DNA of 64,000 bases, taken from assembly GCA_035602395.1 (NCBI GenBank), contig DATNMH010000068.1, positions 920-64,919 on the forward strand. The letters run 5' to 3'. The stretch comes from Candidatus Acidiferrum sp. Lineage in GTDB: Bacteria; Chloroflexota; Dormibacteria; CF-121. Below are positions 3,716 to 58,940 of this stretch, piece after piece. Both the position numbers and the translations under genes were made by a program. Position 1 is the first letter of the stretch. Each line of letters begins with the position of its first letter. Below the pieces are notes generated by a model. It ran no database searches and had not been told where the DNA came from. It saw only the letters and a list, made by a program, of their open reading frames with translations.

Positions 3716-4819
3716 ATGGGAATCTTCGGCCAGGAAGTCCGGCGCGAGTTTATCGCCCGTCCGGATACCGCCAAGGGCCAAATTCTGTTCAAGTGGCCCG
3801 ACACCAACATCCGTAAACTGACCCAGCTCACGGTCGAGCAGGACGAGCTGGCCGTCTTCTTCCGCGACGGCCGCGTTCAGGGTACGATCCAGCCCGGCCG
3901 GGTAACGCTCGACTCATCCGAGATCCCATTCCTCGGCATCCTGGTCGACGCGGCCAGCGGCGGCAACCTGTTCCGGACCGAACTCTATTTCATCTCGACT
4001 CGCGAGTTCCCAAATCTGCCCTTCGGCGGTGCGGTCGACAACGTCATGGATCCGCAGACGAACCTCGGCGTCGGGCTGCGGGTCTTTGGCGAGTACTCGC
4101 TGAAGGTCGTCGAGCCGCAGTCGTTGATCGTCAACCTGGTCGGCACGCAGAATCTATCGACCAATGACGAGATCACCGACTGGATGCGGGAGCAGCTGCT
4201 CAAGACCCTGCGGACCGACGTTGTGTCGCACGTCGTGAGCAACGGCTGGCCGCTGCTTGGCATCGCGGCCCATACCGACGAGATCGAGTCGGAGACGATC
4301 GCCCAGGTGCAGCGCAACATCAGCAGCTACGGCCTGCAGATCGTTCGACTCGGAAATTTCACGATCACGCTGAAGCCCGAGGACGAGGACAAGCTCAAGA
4401 ACTTCCTCCACGACGTTCAGTACTCGAAGCTGGCGGGCGGCTTCCAGCAATACGCGGCTGGCCAGGCGATGATCGGCGCCGGGCAAGGGCTCGCCCAGGG
4501 GCCCGGCCAGGGCGGCGGAGTCAACCCGGCGTTCCTCGGGGTCGGCCTCGGCGTGGGCGGGCTGGTGGCCGGCCAGATGGGTCAGACGCTGGCCGCCGGC
4601 GGCCAGATCCAGGTTCGCTGTCCCAACTGCCACGCGCTGAACGCGGAGAACGCTAAGTTCTGCAACAGCTGCGGCCAGGCGCTCTCGCCGGCCCCGGCGC
4701 CGGCCGGCGCCACGGTTGCCTGCCCGAAGTGCGGCACCCAGAATTCGGCGACTGCGAAGTTCTGCACCAACTGCGGCCAAACACTCACCGGCGGAGGCAC
4801 ACCGGCACCGACCCAGTGA
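3716..4819 (+). CDS. SPFH/Band-7 domain protein with two C-terminal zinc ribbons (YdjI/COG4260-like)
   Basis: N-terminal region typical of COG4260 SPFH proteins. C-terminus has CPNCHALNAENAKFCNSCG and CPKCGTQNSATAKFCTNCG. SD ggagg lies upstream of ATG 3716. Confidence 0.85.
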   Translation: MGIFGQEVRREFIARPDTAKGQILFKWPDTNIRKLTQLTVEQDELAVFFRDGRVQGTIQPGRVTLDSSEIPFLGILVDAASGGNLFRTELYFISTREFPNLPFGGAVDNVMDPQTNLGVGLRVFGEYSLKVVEPQSLIVNLVGTQNLSTNDEITDWMREQLLKTLRTDVVSHVVSNGWPLLGIAAHTDEIESETIAQVQRNISSYGLQIVRLGNFTITLKPEDEDKLKNFLHDVQYSKLAGGFQQYAAGQAMIGAGQGLAQGPGQGGGVNPAFLGVGLGVGGLVAGQMGQTLAAGGQIQVRCPNCHALNAENAKFCNSCGQALSPAPAPAGATVACPKCGTQNSATAKFCTNCGQTLTGGGTPAPTQ

Positions 4820-24589: not shown

Positions 24590-25731
24590 CCCTCCGGTTA
24601 CTTACGGCGGGCGAATCCCACGGCGAGCGGCTCACCGTGATCCTCGACGGTGTTCCCGCCGGGTTGACGGTGCGCGAGGAAGACCTCGCCCGCGACCTGA
24701 CCCGGCGGCAGGGTGGGCACGGCCGAGGCGGACGAATGGCCATCGAGCACGATGCCGCCCACATCGTGGCCGGCGTGCGCGGCGGCTTGACGCTGGGCTC
24801 GCCGATCACGCTCGAGATCGCCAACCGCGACTGGGAGAACTGGCGGCAGGTCATGGCGGTCGACGCCGCGGAGGTCAAGCGCAAACCGATCACGCGGGTG
24901 CGCCCGGGGCACGCGGATCTGGCCGGCATGCTCAAGTACGGCGCCGACGATGCCCGCGACGTGCTCGAGCGCGCCAGCGCCCGGGAGACCGCGGCGCGCG
25001 TGGCGGCGGGCGGGGTGGCGAAGCTGCTGCTCCGCGAGTTCGGCATGCAGGTCCGCAGCTATACGCGCTCCGTCGGGGCCATCGAGGCCACCGTACCCTC
25101 GACGATTTCATGGGACGCGGTTGAGGCATCGCCCGTCCGTTCTCCCCATGATGCGGCGGGGGAGGCCATGGTTGCGGCCATCGACGCCGCGCGCGAACGC
25201 GGCGACACCCTTGGTGGCGTCTTCACCGTGATCGCCGACGGTGTGCCGCCTGGCCTCGGCAGCTACCGCCAGTGGGACACCCGCCTCGACGGGTTGCTCG
25301 CCCAGGCGATCGTGAGCATTCCGGCCTGCAAGGCGGTTGCGATCGGCGATGGCGTGGAGGGCGCGGGCCTAGCTGGCTCGCAGGTCCATGACGTTCCCGT
25401 CTACGACAACCGCCGGCTCAGGCACGAAACCAATCGCGCTGGCGGACTGACCGGCGGCGTCAGCAACGGCGAGCCGCTGGTCGTGCACGGCTACATGAAG
25501 CCGATCTCGACGTTGCTCAAGCCCCTCGCCACCGTCGACCTCAAGACCAAGGAACCGGCCCGCGCCCATTACGAGCGCAGCGACATCTGTGTCGTGCCTG
25601 CGGCTGGCGTGGTCGGCGAGGCCATGGTGGCGCTCGTCCTCGCCGGAGTCGTGCTCGAAAAGTTCGGCGGCGACTCGATGGGGGAGCTTCATCGCAACGT
25701 CGAGAGCTACCTGCAGGAGATCCGCCGTTGA
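24586..25731 (+). CDS. aroC: Chorismate synthase
   Basis: LLTAGESHGE, RPGHADL, GGLTGGVSNGEP. ATGA overlap with aroE. Confidence 0.9.
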   Translation: MTLRLLTAGESHGERLTVILDGVPAGLTVREEDLARDLTRRQGGHGRGGRMAIEHDAAHIVAGVRGGLTLGSPITLEIANRDWENWRQVMAVDAAEVKRKPITRVRPGHADLAGMLKYGADDARDVLERASARETAARVAAGGVAKLLLREFGMQVRSYTRSVGAIEATVPSTISWDAVEASPVRSPHDAAGEAMVAAIDAARERGDTLGGVFTVIADGVPPGLGSYRQWDTRLDGLLAQAIVSIPACKAVAIGDGVEGAGLAGSQVHDVPVYDNRRLRHETNRAGGLTGGVSNGEPLVVHGYMKPISTLLKPLATVDLKTKEPARAHYERSDICVVPAAGVVGEAMVALVLAGVVLEKFGGDSMGELHRNVESYLQEIRR

Positions 25732-27350
25732 ACACCGTAGTCCTGGTCGGCTTCATGGGGAGCGGGAAGTCGACCGTCGGTCCGCGCCTCGCGCAGCGGA
25801 TGGACCGGCCCTTCGTCGACCTCGACGATGTGATCGAGGCCGAGGCCGGGCGATCGGTCGCCGAGATCTTTTCGAGCGAAGGCGAGGCCGGCTTCCGCGA
25901 GCGCGAAGCGCGCTGCCTCGAGCGCGCACTCCAACGCGGCGGCTCGGTTGTTGCCGTCGGGGGCGGCGCGCCGATGCGCGACGAGAACTGGGTGCGCATC
26001 CGGGATGGGAACTGTGTCGTGGCGCTGATCGCCGAGCCCCATGAGCTCGCCCGCCGGCTGAATGGATCAACCGACCGCCCACTGCTGCAGCCGGGCGCGC
26101 CGTCCGTGATCGCTGAGCTGCTGCCGCGCCGCTTGCCCCGCTACCTCGAGGCGGATGTGGTGATCAAGACCGATGGGTTCGATCCGGCCGAGGTCGCGCA
26201 GCAAATCCACGATCGGCTTGCGGGCAGTGGCCTGCACCGGATTCCGATCGACGTCCCCGGCGCCCCACACGACGTCACCGTGGGTGCGCATCTGACCGGC
26301 GTGGTCGCCGCGACGCTGCGGCGGCATTTTCCCTCCCCCTCTGGGGGAGAGCAGGGTGGGGGCTCTCCCACCATCGTCGTCGTGACCGATGACGTGATCG
26401 CCGAACGACACGGCCGACCTCTGCTCCACGAACTGGCATCGGCTGGCATCGATGCACAGATGCACCTGCTGCCGTCAGGGGAGCCTGCTAAGGAGCTAGC
26501 CGTGCTCGCGGGCATCTACGACGCGCTTGCTGCCGCCGGCGTCGATCGGCGCGGCGCGCTGATTGCGTTGGGCGGGGGCAGCGTGGGCGATGTCGCCGGC
26601 TTCGCCGCCGCGACCTGGATGCGGGGCATCAGGTATTTCCAGATGCCGACGACGCTGCTGGCCATGGTCGACAGCAGCATCGGCGGAAAGACGGCGATCA
26701 ACCTGCCCGCCGGCAAGAACCTGGCGGGCGCGGTTCATCAGCCCTCGGCGATCTTCTGCGATCTCGATTACCTGGCAACCCTGCCGGACGAGGAGTTTCG
26801 CGTCGCGTTGGCCGAGGTGATCAAGGCCGCCCTCATTGCCGAGCGCTCTTTTGCCGAGTGGCTCTCCGCCAATATGCCAATGGTGCTGAGCCGCGACGCG
26901 TCCTCGGTCCGCGAGGCGGTGACGCGCGCCATCGCCATCAAGGCGGCTGTTGTGGCGAGCGATCCGAACGAGACGGGTGTGCGGGCCATTCTCAATTACG
27001 GGCACACCGTAGGCCATGCATTGGAACGCGTCGTCGGGTTCGGCGGGATACGACACGGCCAGGCGGTGGCGTGGGGCATGGAGGTGGCGGCACGGATCAG
27101 CCTCCTTGTCGGTGCCTGTACGGCGGAAAGCATTGAGACACAACACGCCCTGCTTCAGGATGCCGGCCTGCTCGGCGATCGCCCCGTCGTTCCTCATGCG
27201 ATGCTGATCGATGCGATGCGGCATGACAAGAAATCCCAATCGGGCGACGCGCGCTGGGTGCTCCTCCGCGAGATCGGCCGGGCGGACTACGGCCAGCGGG
27301 TCGATCCGTCGATCGTTCGCGCCGCGCTCGCCGAGGTCCTTCCCGAATGA
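25728..27350 (+). CDS. aroKB: Fused shikimate kinase / 3-dehydroquinate synthase
   Basis: N-terminal P-loop GFMGSGKSTVG (AroK). C-terminal GGGSVGDVAGFAAATWMRGIRYFQMPTTLLAMVDSSIGGKTAIN and NYGHTVGHALE (AroB). TTGA overlap with aroC. Confidence 0.9.
   Translation: MNTVVLVGFMGSGKSTVGPRLAQRMDRPFVDLDDVIEAEAGRSVAEIFSSEGEAGFREREARCLERALQRGGSVVAVGGGAPMRDENWVRIRDGNCVVALIAEPHELARRLNGSTDRPLLQPGAPSVIAELLPRRLPRYLEADVVIKTDGFDPAEVAQQIHDRLAGSGLHRIPIDVPGAPHDVTVGAHLTGVVAATLRRHFPSPSGGEQGGGSPTIVVVTDDVIAERHGRPLLHELASAGIDAQMHLLPSGEPAKELAVLAGIYDALAAAGVDRRGALIALGGGSVGDVAGFAAATWMRGIRYFQMPTTLLAMVDSSIGGKTAINLPAGKNLAGAVHQPSAIFCDLDYLATLPDEEFRVALAEVIKAALIAERSFAEWLSANMPMVLSRDASSVREAVTRAIAIKAAVVASDPNETGVRAILNYGHTVGHALERVVGFGGIRHGQAVAWGMEVAARISLLVGACTAESIETQHALLQDAGLLGDRPVVPHAMLIDAMRHDKKSQSGDARWVLLREIGRADYGQRVDPSIVRAALAEVLPE
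26331..26363 (+). repeat. Copy c of the hairpin/G-tract element, in-frame inside aroK::aroB
   Basis: ccctccccctctgggggagagcagggtgggggc, translated as PSPSGGEQGGG within ...RRHFPSPSGGEQGGGSPTIVVV... Confidence 0.8.
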
Positions 27351-27805
27351 AGATCCTGGTGCTCAACGGCCCCAACCTCGGCACGCTTGGTCGCCGGGAG
27401 CCCGAGGTGTACGGGACGAAAACGCTCGCCGATCTCGAGATCGTGCTCACCACCCGCGCCAAAGAGCTCGGCGTGGAGCTTCGCTTCCTGCAGTCGAATC
27501 ACGAGGGTCAGCTGATCGACTGGATCGAAACCGAGCCAGGCGACGCCATCATCATCAATCCCGGCGCACTCTCGCACTACAGTCTGGCCCTTGCCGATGC
27601 CATGCGCGGCTCCGGCAAGCCGGTCGTCGAAGTCCACATCTCCAATGTCTTTAGCCGCGAGCCGGAGCGGCACCGGATGGTCACCGCCGCGGCGGCGAAA
27701 GGCGTCATCTCCGGCCTCGGCTTCGAGGGATACCTCGCAGCTCTCGATTACCTGCGATCGCTCCCTCCCCCGCGGGCGGGGGAGGGTCGGGGTGGGGGCG
27801 GCTGA
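27347..27805 (+). CDS. aroQ: Type II 3-dehydroquinate dehydratase
   Basis: ILVLNGPNLGTLGRREPEVYG, QSNHEGQLIDWI, IINPGALSHYS, VEVHISN. The last ~14 codons and the stop come from repeat copy d. Confidence 0.9.
   Translation: MKILVLNGPNLGTLGRREPEVYGTKTLADLEIVLTTRAKELGVELRFLQSNHEGQLIDWIETEPGDAIIINPGALSHYSLALADAMRGSGKPVVEVHISNVFSREPERHRMVTAAAAKGVISGLGFEGYLAALDYLRSLPPPRAGEGRGGGG
27763..27799 (+). repeat. Copy d of the hairpin/G-tract element, forming the 3' end of aroQ
   Basis: ccctcccccgcgggcgggggagggtcggggtgggggc, translated LPPPRAGEGRGGGG then TGA. Confidence 0.8.
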
Positions 27806-28637: not shown

Positions 28638-29591
28638 GTGACCGCGGGGTGGCGGGCCGAGTTTCCGCTGGTCGGCCCGGAGGGCGAGGTCGTCGACCTG
28701 CGCCGCGTTTTCCTCTCGCACGGGATCGCGGAGCTGCCGCCGATGCGACTCGACCAGAAAGCCTGGACCTTTGAAATCACCGTTCCGCTGACCGGATTCA
28801 GCCCGCGGACGGTCGTGATTTCCCAGGCGCTTCCTGGCCACGGAGTGATCGAGATCATGGGTCGGCCGCCAACGCCGAAACTCGGCGTCGCCGTCATGGC
28901 GCAGGTTCGTCATGTCCTGAGCCTTGACCTTGACCTCATGCCCTTCTATGCCGTGGCGGCCGAGGATCCGGATCTGGCCTGGGTCCTCAGCGGAGCGGGG
29001 CGGATGGTGCGCAGCCCCACGGTCTTCGAGGACGTCGTCAAGACCATCTGCACGACGAACACCTCATGGGGCGGAACCACACGGATGGTCAACGCCCTGG
29101 TCGAACACCTGGGCGAGAAGGCGCCCGGAGCGCCGCCGACCGGACCGTATGGGCGTGCCTTTCCCACCCCGCAAGCGATGGCGGCGGCGCCGGAGCGCTT
29201 CTATAAGAAGGTTGCGAGCGCCGGCTACCGGGGCCCTTACCTCAAGTCGCTGGCCAACGACGTCGCGTCCGGACGCGTCGAGCTCGAGAGCCTCGCCCAA
29301 CGCTCGCGAGAGGTGTTGCCCGACGATGAGGTGGCAGCACAGCTGCAGGCGCTGCCCGGCGTCGGCCCCTACGCGGCGGCGCACATCATGTTGATGCTGG
29401 GCCGATACGACCGTCTCATTCTCGATTCCTGGACCAGGCCGACCTACGCTCGCCTCCTCGGGAAGAAGCGGCCTGTCAGCGATCGCACCATCGAGCGCCG
29501 CTTCAAGTCTTATGGGCGTTACGCCGGTCTCGCCTTCTGGCTCTTTCTAACTCGAGATTGGCTGACCGACGACGCCCAGCCTATTCTTTGA
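28638..29591 (+). CDS. HhH-GPD superfamily DNA glycosylase (AlkA / 3-methyladenine glycosylase II-like)
   Basis: LQALPGVGPYAAAHIMLMLGRYDRLILDSW (helix-hairpin-helix plus Asp). GTG 28638 is preferred. The ORF track start TTG 28584 would read through repeat copy f. Confidence 0.8.
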   Translation: MTAGWRAEFPLVGPEGEVVDLRRVFLSHGIAELPPMRLDQKAWTFEITVPLTGFSPRTVVISQALPGHGVIEIMGRPPTPKLGVAVMAQVRHVLSLDLDLMPFYAVAAEDPDLAWVLSGAGRMVRSPTVFEDVVKTICTTNTSWGGTTRMVNALVEHLGEKAPGAPPTGPYGRAFPTPQAMAAAPERFYKKVASAGYRGPYLKSLANDVASGRVELESLAQRSREVLPDDEVAAQLQALPGVGPYAAAHIMLMLGRYDRLILDSWTRPTYARLLGKKRPVSDRTIERRFKSYGRYAGLAFWLFLTRDWLTDDAQPIL

Positions 29592-29598
29592 CAAAACC

Positions 29599-30243
29599 AT
29601 GAGCACGCCGGAGTTGCGGGTGCTGATCGTCTCGACCAACCCGCTCGCGCGCGGCGGACTCGCCGCCATGCTCGAGGGGATGCCGCGGGTGAAGGCGATA
29701 GGCTCGGCCGGCACGGCCGAGGCGGCGTCGCTCGCCGGGCAACTGCTGCCGGACGTCGTGCTCCTCGACGTCGGCGACGGCGAGCTCGAAGACCTCGATG
29801 CGATTGCGCGCCTGGCCGCCGCCCAGCCCGGTTTGCCGATCGTGGCGCTCGCCGGCGAGCCGGGCGCACTGACTCAGGCGCTTGCCTTCGGTGCCTCGGC
29901 CTTGTTGCCAGTCGGCGTCGATCCGGACACCCTGGCCGCGGCCCTGTTCGCCTCCGCCCGGGGGCTGGTGTCGATCCCGCGTCAGGAGATTGCCACCCTG
30001 CTGCCCCACGACGAGCGAATCGAAGCGGCTGCGAACGCGCCGACGGAGTTGCTGACTCCACGCGAGCTCGAGGTGCTCCAGTTGATGGCGCGCGGCTTCA
30101 CCAACCGGCAGATCGCCGGGCGTCTCCAGATCAGCGAGCACACGGTGAAATTCCACGCCGGTGCGGTGCTCGGCAAGCTGAACGCGCACTCGCGCGCCGA
30201 GGCTGTCGCCCGGTCGATCGGACTCGGCTGGATCCTCGTCTAG
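29599..30243 (+). CDS. NarL/LuxR-family response regulator with atypical receiver
   Basis: C-terminal LTPRELEVLQLMARGFTNRQIAGRLQISEHTVKFH. The receiver has VLLLDVGDG, but the N-terminal acidic pair is replaced (IVSTNP). Confidence 0.85.
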   Translation: MSTPELRVLIVSTNPLARGGLAAMLEGMPRVKAIGSAGTAEAASLAGQLLPDVVLLDVGDGELEDLDAIARLAAAQPGLPIVALAGEPGALTQALAFGASALLPVGVDPDTLAAALFASARGLVSIPRQEIATLLPHDERIEAAANAPTELLTPRELEVLQLMARGFTNRQIAGRLQISEHTVKFHAGAVLGKLNAHSRAEAVARSIGLGWILV

Positions 30244-30271
30244 CGATGACGCTCTAGACTAGGCAAGCGAT

Positions 30272-30712
30272 ATGGCAGTGGACGCCGAAGGGTATGGCGC
30301 GAAAGAAGAAGGGCTCGACCGCCTGATCGCGGACGCGCGAGTGCTCTCACCGGCCGGAATCGAGCGGGCCGCCTGGGGCTGGGATCGGCATGAAGATCCG
30401 CGGATCATGGAGCGCTTCCACGAGGCCGAACGCGCGGCGCTCCGCGCCCTCGAGAAGAGCGATCGCGGACCGCAGTGGGACGACGCGCGCAAGCGCATCC
30501 TCGACCTCACCGAGCGTCGGACGTCGCTCGAAGACTGGAAAGCCGAGCATGGTGACGTTGGTCACAAAGCTGAGCGCGCCCTGCTCGCGGCGGCGCTCGC
30601 CATCGTCGCGCGAGACAAGATCGATCATCCGCATTACGTCACGCTGGTGCGGCCAATGTCCGAAGCGCTTCCCTGGCTGTTGCCCGAATTGCCGCCCGAA
30701 CCACGCCGATGA
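30272..30712 (+). CDS. Hypothetical protein, translationally coupled to the rhodanese gene
   Basis: 146-aa ORF with coding-like composition. ATGA overlap with 30709. No recognisable motif. Confidence 0.6.
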   Translation: MAVDAEGYGAKEEGLDRLIADARVLSPAGIERAAWGWDRHEDPRIMERFHEAERAALRALEKSDRGPQWDDARKRILDLTERRTSLEDWKAEHGDVGHKAERALLAAALAIVARDKIDHPHYVTLVRPMSEALPWLLPELPPEPRR

Positions 30713-31149
30713 TGATCGCGCCGCGGGTCGATCCGGCCGCCGCGAAGGCCAAGTTCGACGCAGGCGAGGCCATCCCGCTCGATGTGACCAGCTCGCTGGT
30801 GTATCCGGCCGTAAGCCACCGGATCCCAGGCGCAATTCGGATCCCGCCAGAACCGATCACCCGCGGTCTGCAGGGAGCCCGGCCGGCGGCGGAGATCCTG
30901 AGACACTTCGAGAGCCTGCCTGCCGATCGCGAGATCATCGCCTATTGCACCTGACCCGACGAGGGTACCAGCGCCCGTGTGGCGCAATTTCTCCGACAGC
31001 AAGGGCGGCAGGCGTGGGCATTACGCGGCGGTTTGGCAGCCTGGCGCGCGGCCCAATATCCGATGGAGTCGAAGCACGCCGATCATGCGCCGGGCCCGGA
31101 GGAAGAGTGCCCCGACTGTCATGAGGAAGTCGCGGCACACCTCGCCTGA
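30709..31149 (+). CDS. Single-domain rhodanese (sulfurtransferase) with in-frame TGA at the catalytic-Cys position: candidate selenoprotein, otherwise a pseudogene
   Basis: Frame is open 30709-30951 (...HRIPGAIRIP...REIIAYCT), then TGA at 30952-30954. The same frame continues for 64 codons (PDEGTSARVAQFLRQQGRQAWALRGGLAAWRAAQYP...) to TGA 31147-31149. Confidence 0.6.
30971..30985 (+). promoter_or_regulatory. SECIS-like hairpin candidate downstream of the in-frame TGA
   Basis: gcgcc-cgtgt-ggcgc, a 5-bp GC stem with a 5-nt loop and G at loop position 2. The stem starts 16 nt after the UGA. Such a short stem could occur by chance in GC-rich DNA. Confidence 0.25.
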
Positions 31150-31152
31150 GCG

Positions 31153-31926
31153 TTAGTCGTTGAGCTCGTAGACGACCGCCACGTCGACCGTGACGTTCAT
31201 CTGGCCGGCCTGCACGGGCGCCCCGCCGCCCCCGCCGCCGCATTGGCCGCCGGCGCCGCATGGCGAGTAGCCTGAGCTGCCGCCGATGACCTCTGAAACC
31301 GAGAGCACCTTGCCGAGGTGACGCCCGGCGAGGTTCGCCCATTCCTTGGCACGATCCGCCGCCGCATTCATCGCCCCTTGTCGCGCACCCTTCAGCTGGT
31401 TGGTGTTATCGCTCAATTGCAGCGTGATGCCGTTGATCTGGATGTCGTTGCCCACGGCTCCCTGGGCCGCCCCCAGGACGGTGCCAATATTGGCGATGTG
31501 ATGGATCTTGACGTTGACCGTATTTCCCGCCCGATAACCGATCACGTTGTACTGGTTTTCTTGATAGACGTTGATGCCGGTCGTCTGGATGTCGGCGTCC
31601 AGGACTCCTTGGCCCTTGATCGCCTTCAGCAGTGCGGTCATCTCGCTGTTGGCGGCGTTCATCGCATCTGCCGCCGTGCTCTGCCTGGTCAACACGCCCA
31701 TGCTGATCAAGGCGTTGTCCGGCGTCGCATTCTGGGTTCCTTCGCCGACAACGGTGACCGTGTCCCGTGGTCCGGCAACACCGCCGGCTCCGACCGAGGT
31801 CTGCGTCGATCCCGCCGCGCCGGCCCGGACGGCCACCGCCGTTACCGCCGATGCCGCGATCGCGATCAAGGCGCCGATGATGATCAGAATTCCACGCGTG
31901 GCGAGCGTACCCCTCAAGGCTTGCAT
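31153..31926 (-). CDS. SIMPL-domain (DUF541) secreted/periplasmic protein
   Basis: N-terminal TM/signal segment and a SIMPL-like core (GVLTRQSTAADAMNAANSEMTALLKAIK ... NDIQINGITLQL). Confidence 0.75.
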   Translation of the reverse strand: MQALRGTLATRGILIIIGALIAIAASAVTAVAVRAGAAGSTQTSVGAGGVAGPRDTVTVVGEGTQNATPDNALISMGVLTRQSTAADAMNAANSEMTALLKAIKGQGVLDADIQTTGINVYQENQYNVIGYRAGNTVNVKIHHIANIGTVLGAAQGAVGNDIQINGITLQLSDNTNQLKGARQGAMNAAADRAKEWANLAGRHLGKVLSVSEVIGGSSGYSPCGAGGQCGGGGGGAPVQAGQMNVTVDVAVVYELND

Positions 31927-34899: not shown

Positions 34900-35172
34900 T
34901 TGGCCACGACACAGGTCTGTACGCATCTGGAGTTGATTGTCAATCCGCGGCCGAAAACCAAGGGCTGCGAGGAATGTCTGAAGATGGGGGACGCCTGGGT
35001 CCACCTCCGCTTGTGCGAGGTCTGCGGTCACGTTGGCTGCTGTGACTCGTCGAAGAACAAGCACGCCACCAAGCACTTCCACGCCACCGGCCATCCGATC
35101 GTCAAGTCGCTCGAGCGCGGCGAGAACTGGATGTACTGTTACCTCGACGACGTGATGTTCGAGGTTGACTAG
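34900..35172 (+). CDS. Stand-alone UBP-type zinc-finger protein
   Basis: SD aaggagg before TTG 34900. CTHL...CEECL...LRLCEVCGHVGCCDSSKNKHATKHFHATGHP matches the zf-UBP Cys/His pattern. Confidence 0.75.
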   Translation: MATTQVCTHLELIVNPRPKTKGCEECLKMGDAWVHLRLCEVCGHVGCCDSSKNKHATKHFHATGHPIVKSLERGENWMYCYLDDVMFEVD

Positions 35173-35780
35173 GCGGCGAGCGTTCCCTCGGACTCGGGTG
35201 TCTTGATCTCGATCACTTCACCAAAGCGATGCACCGTTTCGATGGCGTCGTACAGCGGGACCGCCCGATCCGGCGGGATGAGATCGGTGATTTTCAGGTA
35301 GTAACTCCGGCCTTCGGGCCAGACGAGTGTCGGCACACCGAACACGCCACGCCGTACCGCCTCCGAGTGCTCTTTTGCCAGCGTCGTGAAATCCGCCGCC
35401 TTGACGTCTTCCTCCCAGCGTGCGACCTCGAGTCCGGCCCGCTCGACGATCACCCGATGCGTCGCGTGCTGATCCAGCGGCAGGTGGTCCTCATGGCGGG
35501 CGCGCTGGAGGGCGAGCCGGAAGCGATCCCCGAGCTCGGCGCCCTGGGCGCGGGCGGCGGTCGCCGCCAGGAAAGCGGGTAACCCTTGCGCTTGCGGATC
35601 GCGCTCCCAGACGGGCGGGGTGGGCGAGCCTTCATGGGCCTGGTGGTTCTGGCTCAGCGAAAAGAACGCAAAGCGGGGCCGGATCCGGCCGGCTTTCTCG
35701 ACCTCGGCCAGCCACATCGACCCGCGATATGCCCAGGGACAGAGGAAGTCGATGTAGACGGTCGGCTCGCTGATCGTCAT
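35169..35780 (-). CDS. DsbA-like thioredoxin-fold protein (monothiol CPWA motif)
   Basis: VYIDFLCPWAYRG. 4-nt overlap with the upstream LLM gene. Confidence 0.7.
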   Translation of the reverse strand: MTISEPTVYIDFLCPWAYRGSMWLAEVEKAGRIRPRFAFFSLSQNHQAHEGSPTPPVWERDPQAQGLPAFLAATAARAQGAELGDRFRLALQRARHEDHLPLDQHATHRVIVERAGLEVARWEEDVKAADFTTLAKEHSEAVRRGVFGVPTLVWPEGRSYYLKITDLIPPDRAVPLYDAIETVHRFGEVIEIKTPESEGTLAA

Positions 35781-36760
35781 CCCGTGGTCGAGTGTACCGG
35801 GGTCGCGCCAGCGAGTTGCGGAATGACCTCAGTTTCGAACCGGTGGAGAGGCTCCAGGTCATAGGCGACGCCCGGGATGTAGATGATGAAATAGTCGATG
35901 CCGGCCTCGATCAAGGTCCGCAGGTGCTCCGCCACCCTGTCGGCGTCGGCGATCAGCGTCCCTTCGCGGAAGCCCTCGTAGCCGCGGGCTTTGGCCCTCG
36001 CCCGCTCGGGGTCTTCGGGCCTGCCGATCACGAGCACTTCCGCCTCCGCCGACTTGACGATGTCGTCGTAGTTGCGGCCGACCGTCTCACAGTGCTGGCG
36101 GAGCACGCCGAGCTTGTGGCGGATGGTGTCGGGATCGCCGCCGACGTTGCAGGCGTCCCCATACTGCGCGACCAACTTGAGCGTGACGCGCTCGCCGGAC
36201 CCCCCGATCCACAGCGGTGGATGCGGCTTCTGGACGCCCTTCGGCTCGTTGATCGGCCGGTCGATCGTGTAGTACTTTCCCTTGAACACGGGGGAGTCCT
36301 CGGTCCACATTCGGTGGATGATCTCGCAGGCCTCCTTGAACATTCCCATCCGTTCTTTGAGCTCGGGAAAGCCGTACCCGTAGGCCCGCCATTCGTGCTC
36401 GTACCAGCCGGCGCCGATCCCGGCATTCAGTCGCCCGTGGCTGGCGACGTCCACGGTGGAGGCGATCTTGGCGTAGAGCGCCGGGTTGCGGTAGCCGTTG
36501 CACCCGACCATCTGGCCGACGCGCACGCGCTTTGTGTCTCGCACCAGCGTTGAGGTGATCGTCCAGCATTCGAAGGTCGTCTCCAGTGTCGGTTCCGGCA
36601 CCGTATGGAAGTGGTCGTAGACCCAGACGGCGTCCCACGGACCGCGATCGGCGGCCTGCGCCACCTTCGTCATCGCCTCATACTTTTCAACGGGGTCCTT
36701 GATCTGCGCCAGGTCCATGCGCCAGCCTTGCGGGACGAAGACGCCAAATTTCACTGCCAT
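35777..36760 (-). CDS. Luciferase-like (LLM class) F420-dependent oxidoreductase
   Basis: MAVKFGVFVPQGW..., TIM-barrel LLM motifs, and a C-terminus typical of the TIGR03560-type family. Confidence 0.8.
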   Translation of the reverse strand: MAVKFGVFVPQGWRMDLAQIKDPVEKYEAMTKVAQAADRGPWDAVWVYDHFHTVPEPTLETTFECWTITSTLVRDTKRVRVGQMVGCNGYRNPALYAKIASTVDVASHGRLNAGIGAGWYEHEWRAYGYGFPELKERMGMFKEACEIIHRMWTEDSPVFKGKYYTIDRPINEPKGVQKPHPPLWIGGSGERVTLKLVAQYGDACNVGGDPDTIRHKLGVLRQHCETVGRNYDDIVKSAEAEVLVIGRPEDPERARAKARGYEGFREGTLIADADRVAEHLRTLIEAGIDYFIIYIPGVAYDLEPLHRFETEVIPQLAGATPVHSTTG

Positions 36761-57860: not shown

Positions 57861-58940
57861 ATGGCGCTAGCGCTAGCGGAAACCTGGCAACTGCCCGCCT
57901 CGGTAGATCCGGGCGGGCTGGTCGACCCGGTCGACTCAGCCCGGGCGGCTGGCCTGCGGTATGGATCCGACCAGGGTCCAGGCGTCCGACGGAAACGTGT
58001 CGCGAAGGCGTTCACCTACATCGCGGACGGGGTGACCATCCGCGATGCGGAGACGATCCGGCGGATCAAGAGCCTGGCCATCCCGCCGGCGTGGACGGAC
58101 GTGTGGATCTGCCCCGACCCCCGCGGCCACCTGCAAGCGACTGGGCGGGATGCAGGTGGGCGGAAGCAATATCGCTATCACGCGCGCTGGCGGGAGGTCC
58201 GGGACGCGGTCAAGTACGACCACATGCTGGCCTTCGCTGAAGCGTTACCCCGGATCCGAGAGCGGACCGACCAGCACCTCGAGCGTTCCAGCACGCCTAA
58301 AGAGAAGGTGCTCGCGACCGTGGTCCGCCTGCTCGAAGAAACCCGTATCCGTGTAGGCAACGAGGAGTACCGAAAGGAGAACGGCTCCTATGGATTGACG
58401 ACGCTGCGCAACCGCCACGTCGATGTAATCGGCTCGGAGGTGCGCTTTGCCTTTCGGGGTAAGAGCGGAAAGCACCATCGAGTGAGCCTTCACGATCGGC
58501 GGCTGGCACGGACCATCAAGCGCTTTCTCGAGATCCCCGGCCAGGAGCTGTTCCAGTACATCGATGAAGACGGGGAGCCGAAGGCGATCGAGTCGACCGA
58601 TGTCAACGACTACCTGAGGGAGATCACTGGCGAGGACTTCACCGCCAAGGACTTCCGCACCTGGGCCGGCACTATCCTCGCGGCCCGATTCCTCCGCGAA
58701 ACCTTAAGAGAACCGGAGACGCAGGGGGCGAAGCAGGAGCTGGTGCGGGCAATCGCCCGGGTTGCGGACGAGCTCGGCAACACCCCCGCGGTCTGCAAGA
58801 AGGGCTACATCCATCCGGCGGTGATCGCCGCGTACCTTGCAGGCCGCCTGAAGCCGATCAAGGAAAGAGACGACGAGGATCCCTACAAGCTCTCCGCCGA
58901 GGAACGGGGCCTGCTCGCCCTGCTGACGAAGGCGGCCTGA
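57861..58940 (+). CDS. Bacterial type IB DNA topoisomerase (poxvirus-like)
   Basis: IPPAWTDVWICPDPRGHLQATGRDAGGRKQYRYH, FRGKSGKHH, KDFRTWAGT, CKKGYIHP (catalytic Tyr context). Confidence 0.85.
   Translation: MALALAETWQLPASVDPGGLVDPVDSARAAGLRYGSDQGPGVRRKRVAKAFTYIADGVTIRDAETIRRIKSLAIPPAWTDVWICPDPRGHLQATGRDAGGRKQYRYHARWREVRDAVKYDHMLAFAEALPRIRERTDQHLERSSTPKEKVLATVVRLLEETRIRVGNEEYRKENGSYGLTTLRNRHVDVIGSEVRFAFRGKSGKHHRVSLHDRRLARTIKRFLEIPGQELFQYIDEDGEPKAIESTDVNDYLREITGEDFTAKDFRTWAGTILAARFLRETLREPETQGAKQELVRAIARVADELGNTPAVCKKGYIHPAVIAAYLAGRLKPIKERDDEDPYKLSAEERGLLALLTKAA

Follow-up and report, generated by a model that had tools for sequence, protein, structure and literature searches.

We analyzed a 64,000-nucleotide stretch of contig DATNMH010000068.1 (assembly GCA_035602395.1), hereafter called the window and part of a Dormibacterota genome, in which a preliminary description, made from the sequence without database searches, had pointed to a rhodanese gene with an in-frame TGA and had proposed it as a candidate selenocysteine (Sec) gene. 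We found that positions 30709-31149 very probably encode a 146-residue cytoplasmic selenoprotein with a rhodanese domain, whose UGA codon at 30952-30954 is predicted to be read as Sec by means of a hairpin in the mRNA. The conserved UGA, the translated frame beyond it, the RNA-constrained hairpin, and the replacement of Sec by Cys in relatives together argue for a genuine Sec codon. The earlier proposal is thus backed by the alternation of UGA and Cys codons among orthologues, by selection on the downstream sequence, by a hairpin frozen in UGA forms only, and by a second gene, similar to that for selenoprotein W (SelW), in the same lineage. The rhodanese gene would imply that Dormibacterota use selenocysteine; our search of the literature found no paper linking this phylum with selenocysteine or selenoproteins.

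A rhodanese gene interrupted by a single TGA

The plus-strand open reading frame (ORF) starts at ATG 30709 and reads ...LPADREIIAYCT up to the in-frame TGA, which follows ...REIIAYCT. Past the TGA, the frame stays open for 64 further codons, PDEGTSARVAQFLRQQGRQAWALRGGLAAWRAA...ECPDCHEEVAAHLA (in full, PDEGTSARVAQFLRQQGRQAWALRGGLAAWRAAQYPMESKHADHAPGPEEECPDCHEEVAAHLA), until TGA 31147-31149. With Cys put at the TGA, the Pfam Rhodanese model (PF00581) matches residues 9-114 (46.1 bits, cutoff 22.2; E = 7e-12). The domain thus extends across the stop codon, and 30709-31149 is a single rhodanese-domain gene, interrupted by TGA 30952-30954 only. On re-reading, every coordinate of this layout in the preliminary description matched; its view of the two halves as one single-domain rhodanese agrees with the Pfam match across the TGA, and the ATGA overlap it described with the upstream ORF (30272-30712) is present in the sequence. 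The same frame is maintained in 28 Dormibacterota genomes. An open frame by itself is little evidence at 65% G+C, which is the composition of the window, but the conservation data go far past chance.

TGA is also the commonest ordinary stop in the window, where it terminates 25 of 43 long ORFs as well as the rhodanese gene itself. The UGA code has thus not been reassigned, and a local signal is needed; we rejected global reassignment of UGA on this ground. A rough search of the window for further coding frames broken by a TGA returned only adjacent same-frame genes or noncoding frames.

Conservation of the TGA across assemblies and genomes

Four independent assemblies, from at least three separate soil samples, all carry the 441-nt gene with its TGA and without any difference from the window; the 81-residue product is recorded in ENA assemblies ERZ27256109, ERZ28654883, and ERZ923189 and in one Logan assembly, all of soil metagenomes. 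In a collection with a single genome for each species, we found the rhodanese orthologue in 28 Dormibacterota genomes. TGA occupies the same codon in 23 of the 28, with the frame open to the same C terminus, and TGC or TGT occupies it in the other five (L023-26 and L028).

Of the 337 relatives found in a protein search, we looked at the best 120. Thirteen of them, with 145-148 aa and 58-71% identity, are full length and read YCT-C-P[DNG]EETS, with Cys invariant in the TGA column; the other 107 (80-93 aa) align to 55% of the query and are 78-98% identical to it. More than 100 distinct short-form metagenomic protein clusters are listed, and all seven sequences retrieved from such clusters end ...AYCT. 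The preliminary description had called for orthologues to be compared for TGC/TGT or TGA at this codon; the five sister genomes and the 13 homologues have Cys there. In a neighbor-joining tree, the Sec clade includes the Cys form P0001 and has L027, a Sec form of 65% identity, at its base; Sec and Cys have thus probably been exchanged on more than one occasion.

Two of the loci, L007 and L018, show Dormibacterota synteny and a 79-87% identical rhodanese, yet carry the names "Candidatus Binatus sp." and "uncultured Actinomycetes bacterium" in the database; these deposits are probably mis-binned or mislabelled.

Translation past the TGA

We computed synonymous and nonsynonymous differences (pS and pN) and the nonsynonymous/synonymous rate ratio (dN/dS) among 22 UGA-form genes. 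For codons −70 to −1 relative to the TGA, pS was 0.56, pN was 0.136, and dN/dS was 0.147; the corresponding values were 0.40, 0.09, and 0.166 for codons +1 to +4 and 0.59, 0.064, and 0.058 for codons +12 to +38. In every TGA-form genome, the better conserved of the two halves is the C-terminal one (81-98% identity to the window, compared with 62-93% for the N-terminal half). The sequence 3′ of the TGA is under strong purifying selection and hence is translated. Codons +1 to +4 precede any possible internal restart codon and show synonymous change with the protein conserved, which argues against a split gene.

A hairpin frozen only where the codon is UGA

A hairpin with the core GCGCC-CGUGU-GGCGC lies at 30971-30985, 16 nt past the UGA, just where it had been placed by the preliminary description, which judged it to be within the loose distance range of bacterial Sec insertion sequence (bSECIS) elements. 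Offsets +15 to +34 after the TGA (30967-30986, ACCAGCGCCCGTGTGGCGCA) are invariant in 24 of 24 UGA-form sequences. Of the third-codon positions, six of the seven in this block never change, compared with four of the 97 outside it (Fisher P = 9e-7), and pS for the block codons is 0.016 in UGA forms and 0.49 in Cys forms, which encode nearly identical amino acids there with different codons. The hairpin has been lost in Cys forms (P0001, L024-26, L028, L035, and L036), including the one nested in the Sec clade (P0001). The hairpin is under RNA-level selection, and only where the codon is UGA; the frozen 20-nt block is a clean natural candidate SECIS for the Dormibacterota lineage.

The published bSECIS model, as restated in PMC13188914, calls for a loop of 3 to 9 nt on a stem of 4 to 16 bp, with a G at loop position 1 or 2 that is usually followed by G or U, 16 to 37 nt between UGA and loop, and a minimum free energy of ≤−7.5 kcal/mol. 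The rhodanese hairpin falls within all of these limits: its 5-nt loop, C-G-U-G-U, has G at position 2 followed by U, its stem is 5 bp, its loop begins 21 nt from the UGA, and its minimum free energy is −7.6 to −10.5 kcal/mol. We propose that UGA 30952-30954 would be decoded by the standard bacterial route, in which SelB with Sec-tRNA(Sec) would be recruited by the hairpin at 30971-30985.

A SelW-like gene with an in-frame TGA on the same contig

When the contig was extended 10 kb rightward, a SelW-like gene appeared about 3 kb past the right end of the window, on a contig (ERZ923189 k127_692675; locus L074) that also bears the rhodanese gene. It had been called as a 53-aa Rdx-family fragment; its actual reading is MLDPKHRVTIEYCVP-TGA-NYLEQ...IAWR. 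With Cys at the TGA, the protein scores 60.9 bits against TIGR02174 (cutoff, 34.2) and matches Pfam Rdx over residues 7-77. It belongs to the SelT/SelW/SelH family, and the TGA falls on the U of the family-defining CxxU; this TGA is kept in 80 of 80 related metagenome loci. The gene has its own hairpin, GGCCGUC-GGUCU-GGCGGCU, with a 5-nt loop that begins GG and lies 21 nt past the UGA. The SelW-like and rhodanese hairpins thus agree in both loop size and UGA-to-loop spacing. Two unrelated selenoprotein families with equal UGA-loop geometry in one genome are hard to explain without working Sec machinery, and the two genes together point to selenium dependence of the globally abundant, uncultured soil phylum Dormibacterota.

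Weighing the explanations

Several results weigh against a Sec-decoded rhodanese. The search for Sec-decoding genes covered only part of the genomes, namely the 64-kb window and 1.47 Mb of related loci, and detected neither selA, selB, selD, nor tRNA-Sec there: ARAGORN detected no tRNA-Sec in the window or any of the loci, Rfam none in the window at the gathering threshold or in 30900-31100 at the E-value threshold, and tblastn with E. coli SelA, SelB, and SelD gave no match in the window and 153 loci. The same Rfam searches gave no match to a SECIS model and returned tRNA-Asn only. The hairpin shows no compensatory base-pair changes, as its five core pairs never vary, and with an invariant core the shuffle and slide controls on its alignment carry no information; its single-sequence fold energy is ordinary (z = −0.85, with 37 of 200 shuffles folding equally well). 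The best NCBIfam match of the protein, NF041203, reaches 64.5 bits, under its curated cutoff of 115. The methods differ as to whether U82 or Cys80 holds the catalytic column, and the case for selenenylsulfide and tail-relay chemistry (see below) comes only from motif conservation and a low-confidence model of the tail.

We considered what else might account for the gene. The TGA is one base from TGC or TGT, but the data exclude both a nonsense mutation, with the gene a pseudogene, and a misread or misassembled TGC/TGT codon: the identical sequence occurs in four independent assemblies, TGA recurs in 23 other species genomes, more than 100 metagenomic clusters are of the short length, and purifying selection acts on the downstream half, which is free of the additional disabling mutations that the preliminary description had named as evidence against its proposal. 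Translation might instead simply stop at the UGA, as gene callers and public annotation have it, to give an 81-residue product, or the gene might be split, with a restart at GTG 30979, where an in-frame ORF (30979-31149) does begin, and a hairpin that serves restart or mRNA stability. We think this very improbable, since the codons between UGA and GTG 30979 (P-D/E-E-G-T-S-A-R) are conserved as protein (pS 0.40, dN/dS 0.17), an 81-residue piece would cut the rhodanese fold ahead of the active-site loop and helix, and Cys forms make the same protein as one unbroken chain.

Cys-charged tRNA-Sec-like tRNAs with a SelB paralogue have been described in a few bacteria, and UGA 82 could likewise be recoded with the hairpin to Cys or another residue. 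Sec at residue 82 is something we infer, Cys is functionally acceptable in this column in sister lineages, and the window and related loci hold no selA or selD, all of which would suit such recoding. It is nevertheless highly unlikely: the UGA/Cys lineage pattern and the SECIS-like hairpin are ordinary selenoprotein behavior, the lineage has UGA in a second gene too, one that belongs to a classical family of selenoproteins (SelW-like, CxxU), and a plain Cys codon would suffice, as it does in the sister clade. Sec insertion at UGA 30952-30954 remains the best explanation. Dozens of Dormibacterota genomes and more than 100 metagenomic clusters carry the gene annotated as an 81-residue "rhodanese-like domain-containing protein", whereas its true product is almost certainly a 146-residue selenoprotein.

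The active site

The predicted Sec82 sits in the active-site loop and adjoins Cys80, as C80-T-U82. The preliminary description had set the TGA exactly on the catalytic Cys65 of E. coli GlpE. This placement holds for the gapless alignment used there, and HMMER profile alignments to both active domains of 6mxv agree with it and put U82 on the catalytic Cys; other lines of evidence favor Cys80. Against GlpE, hhalign (probability 37%) pairs DREIIAYC with DTPVMVMC, which sets Cys80 on Cys65 and leaves U82-P83 as a two-residue loop insertion. A second line is an AlphaFold2 (AF2) model of the Cys homologue P0001, which is 71% identical to the window protein (pLDDT 76.7). This model has a rhodanese fold, and its top PDB matches in Foldseek are single-domain rhodaneses (E of about 1e-6); strand 75-80, the central one, ends with Cys80 and is followed by loop 81-85 and a helix from 86, an order that, with Cys80 as the catalytic residue, is the canonical "strand-end Cys plus five loop residues". 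phmmer against domain 2 of 1e0c (RhdA) also pairs Cys80 with the catalytic Cys. Cys80 is the probable partner of Sec82 and is possibly the canonical rhodanese Cys.

Column 82 is invariant. At column 80, the first Cys is replaced by Ser in cluster P0007, a Cys form with nine member sequences (AYSTCPNEETS); with Ser at 80 and Cys kept at 82, it is a natural variant pointing to column 82 as the indispensable one.

Acidic and free of basic residues, the loop P-D-E-G-T exceeds the canonical C-x-x-G-x-R loop by two residues. Beyond the domain, the protein ends in a CPDC...H tail. Sec and Cys forms within the Dormibacterota clade share this motif without variation, and the secreted relatives terminate ahead of it. 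Disorder is predicted for the last 20 residues, and the tail has a pLDDT of <50 in the AF2 model. Chemically, Sec82 would be the reactive nucleophile, and Cys80 (i, i + 2) would close a selenenylsulfide with it, to be resolved by the flexible tail or by an external thiol; the protein would then be a thiol/selenol redox protein or a sulfane-sulfur carrier and not a classical thiosulfate sulfurtransferase. The tail is most economically read as a mobile CxxC element that reduces the active site or accepts its sulfur, or that shares a metal site with it, though we hold this less likely than not.

Secreted relatives

A genome scan identified 36-44% identical relatives that have a signal peptide or membrane anchor and lack the C-terminal tail. 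UGA forms of this kind occur in Anaerolineae, Chloroflexia, Binataceae, and Thermoanaerobaculia (L029-L034, L037, and L042); their motif is [YFI]-C-T-TGA-P/A/S/L/T...SARAA, and the same hairpin, AGCGCC-CG[UG]G[UC]-GGCGC, sometimes with 6 to 7 bp, follows at equal distance. Thermomicrobiales relatives read YCTCPED and have no hairpin.

In an Anaerolineae metagenome-assembled genome (AnMBR.bin251; L038, positions 4186-4194), the gene for a secreted relative carries TGA in each of the two Cys columns (FY-TGA-T-TGA-PAE), with the same hairpin after them. This would make a possible double-Sec, U-x-U active site and suggests that both positions are redox-active.

Gene neighborhood

Table 1 lists the features of the locus. 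An orphan ORF precedes the rhodanese gene and is preceded in turn by a LuxR/GerE-type response regulator gene, which may be cotranscribed. This order is kept in 26 of the 28 genomes, that is, in all whose locus extends far enough. The orphan gene was found in 27 of the 28, always immediately 5′ of the rhodanese gene; in the window and several genomes, it runs up to or into the rhodanese start codon. It is highly conserved, at a mean column identity of 82%, and has 1,256 homologues, every one annotated as "hypothetical" and without a Pfam family; the orphan matched no Pfam or NCBIfam family, and Foldseek found no fold match in the PDB for its AF2 model (best E, 0.96). A scan of 29400-31400 found no promoter or terminator.

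TABLE 1 Features of the rhodanese locus and of the SelW-like gene
Feature	Position	Strand	Basis
LuxR/GerE-type response regulator gene, 28 nt 5′ of the orphan ORF	29599..30243	+	Pfam GerE and Response_reg; synteny
Orphan ORF, 146 aa, all-helical, Cys-free; stop overlaps rhodanese start (ATGA)	30272..30712	+	Overlap; synteny
Predicted rhodanese-domain selenoprotein coding sequence, 146 residues, Sec at 82, stop TGA 31147-31149	30709..31149	+	Translation; Pfam; frame in 28 genomes; AF2/Foldseek
Codon TGC for Cys80, the C of the C-x-U motif	30946..30948	+	hhalign; AF2 model; P0007; L038
In-frame UGA, predicted Sec82, the U of the C-T-U motif	30952..30954	+	TGA/Cys alternation among orthologues
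Candidate SECIS element, 20-nt invariant block; apical loop starts 21 nt after UGA	30967..30986	+	Invariance; bSECIS model
C-terminal tail motif C134-P-D-C137...H144	31108..31140	+	Invariant columns C134, P135, C137, and H144
SelW-like (Rdx/TIGR02174) gene, TGA at U of CxxU (EYCVP-TGA-NY)	L074 14199-14468 (~66933-67202 in window numbering)	+	

On the opposite strand, 3′ of the rhodanese gene, there is usually a gene for a SIMPL/DUF541 protein, and beyond it lie genes for an HtrA-like protease, an ABC exporter, a DsbA/Rv2466c-like protein, and a luciferase-like monooxygenase. In the window, the DsbA/Rv2466c-like thiol oxidoreductase and luciferase-like monooxygenase genes are at 35169-35780 and 35777-36760 (minus strand), and in most of the 28 genomes they lie within about 5 kb of the rhodanese gene. 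The neighborhood may be redox-related.

Elsewhere in the window, shikimate kinase and 3-dehydroquinate synthase are fused in one 540-aa ORF (25728-27350, plus strand), which a type II dehydroquinase gene (27347-27805, plus strand) overlaps by 4 nt. The window also encodes a bacterial type IB topoisomerase (57861-58940, plus strand; Pfam Top1B_N_bact and Topoisom_I, L074 gene table), an enzyme uncommon in bacteria.

Comparison with known systems

Knowledge of rhodanese selenoproteins dates back to the Sargasso Sea survey, in keeping with the remark in the preliminary description that metagenomic surveys had reported them. A published catalogue includes a rhodanese-like selenoprotein "form 3" with a CxU motif and sets it apart from forms in which Sec replaces the canonical Cys (UxxS and UxxG) (PMC13188914). 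With the latter (forms 1, 2, and 4 of the Sargasso Sea and bSECISearch studies), the window protein shares the rhodanese domain, a UGA-encoded Sec in the active-site loop, and computational discovery in genomes and metagenomes. Those forms put Sec in place of the Cys of the C-x-x-G-x-R loop, whereas the window protein keeps a Cys at −2 in its longer, acidic loop.

The best NCBIfam match is NF041203 (rhodanese_LYCAU, "rhodanese-related (seleno)protein"; E = 7e-18). This family, or form 3, has in common with the window protein a single rhodanese domain, a Cys followed by Sec two positions on (Y-C-x-U), and the existence of Sec and Cys versions. The window motif is A-Y-C-T-U-P and not L-Y-C-A-U, with Y-C-T-C in Cys forms, and the Dormibacterota clade differs further in having no signal peptide and in its CPDC...H tail and coupling to an orphan ORF. 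By motif and domain, the predicted protein is one that resembles the form-3 CxU rhodanese selenoprotein and lies outside the NF041203 equivalog model. That model, built for CxU rhodanese selenoproteins, misses both the Dormibacterota clade and the multiphylum secreted YCT-U-P clade, whose members score 66-88 bits against the cutoff of 115; current NCBI models would thus leave the secreted clade unflagged as selenoproteins.

Fold, size, the GG..AW motif, and the post-loop helix (SARVAQFLRQQG in the window protein) are shared with E. coli GlpE/PspE; the helix alignment drawn by eye in the preliminary description reappears in hhalign. The window loop is C-T-U-P-D-E-G-T instead of C-Y-H-G-N-S, and the window protein had no match to the GlpE/PspE NCBIfam models at E ≤ 0.01. 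Because the loop is acidic and lacks a basic residue, the substrate probably differs from that of GlpE/PspE.

As for the hairpin, it shares with E. coli fdhF-type and consensus bSECIS elements its place as a stem-loop within the coding sequence directly 3′ of the UGA, a small apical loop with G then U, and spacing in the range of 16 to 37 nt. It has no sequence similarity to the E. coli elements; its stem is a short, 5-bp G+C helix with at most a weak lower stem.

It is conceivable, if somewhat short of an even bet, that the locus represents a distinct Dormibacterota system, with a C-x-U site, a redox or metal-binding CPDC...H tail, an ATGA-coupled orphan, and possibly LuxR control, and is the first documented use of Sec in the phylum. 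The kind of protein is already known; what is new is a cytoplasmic, tail-bearing, orphan-coupled clade that has been systematically misannotated as 81 aa.

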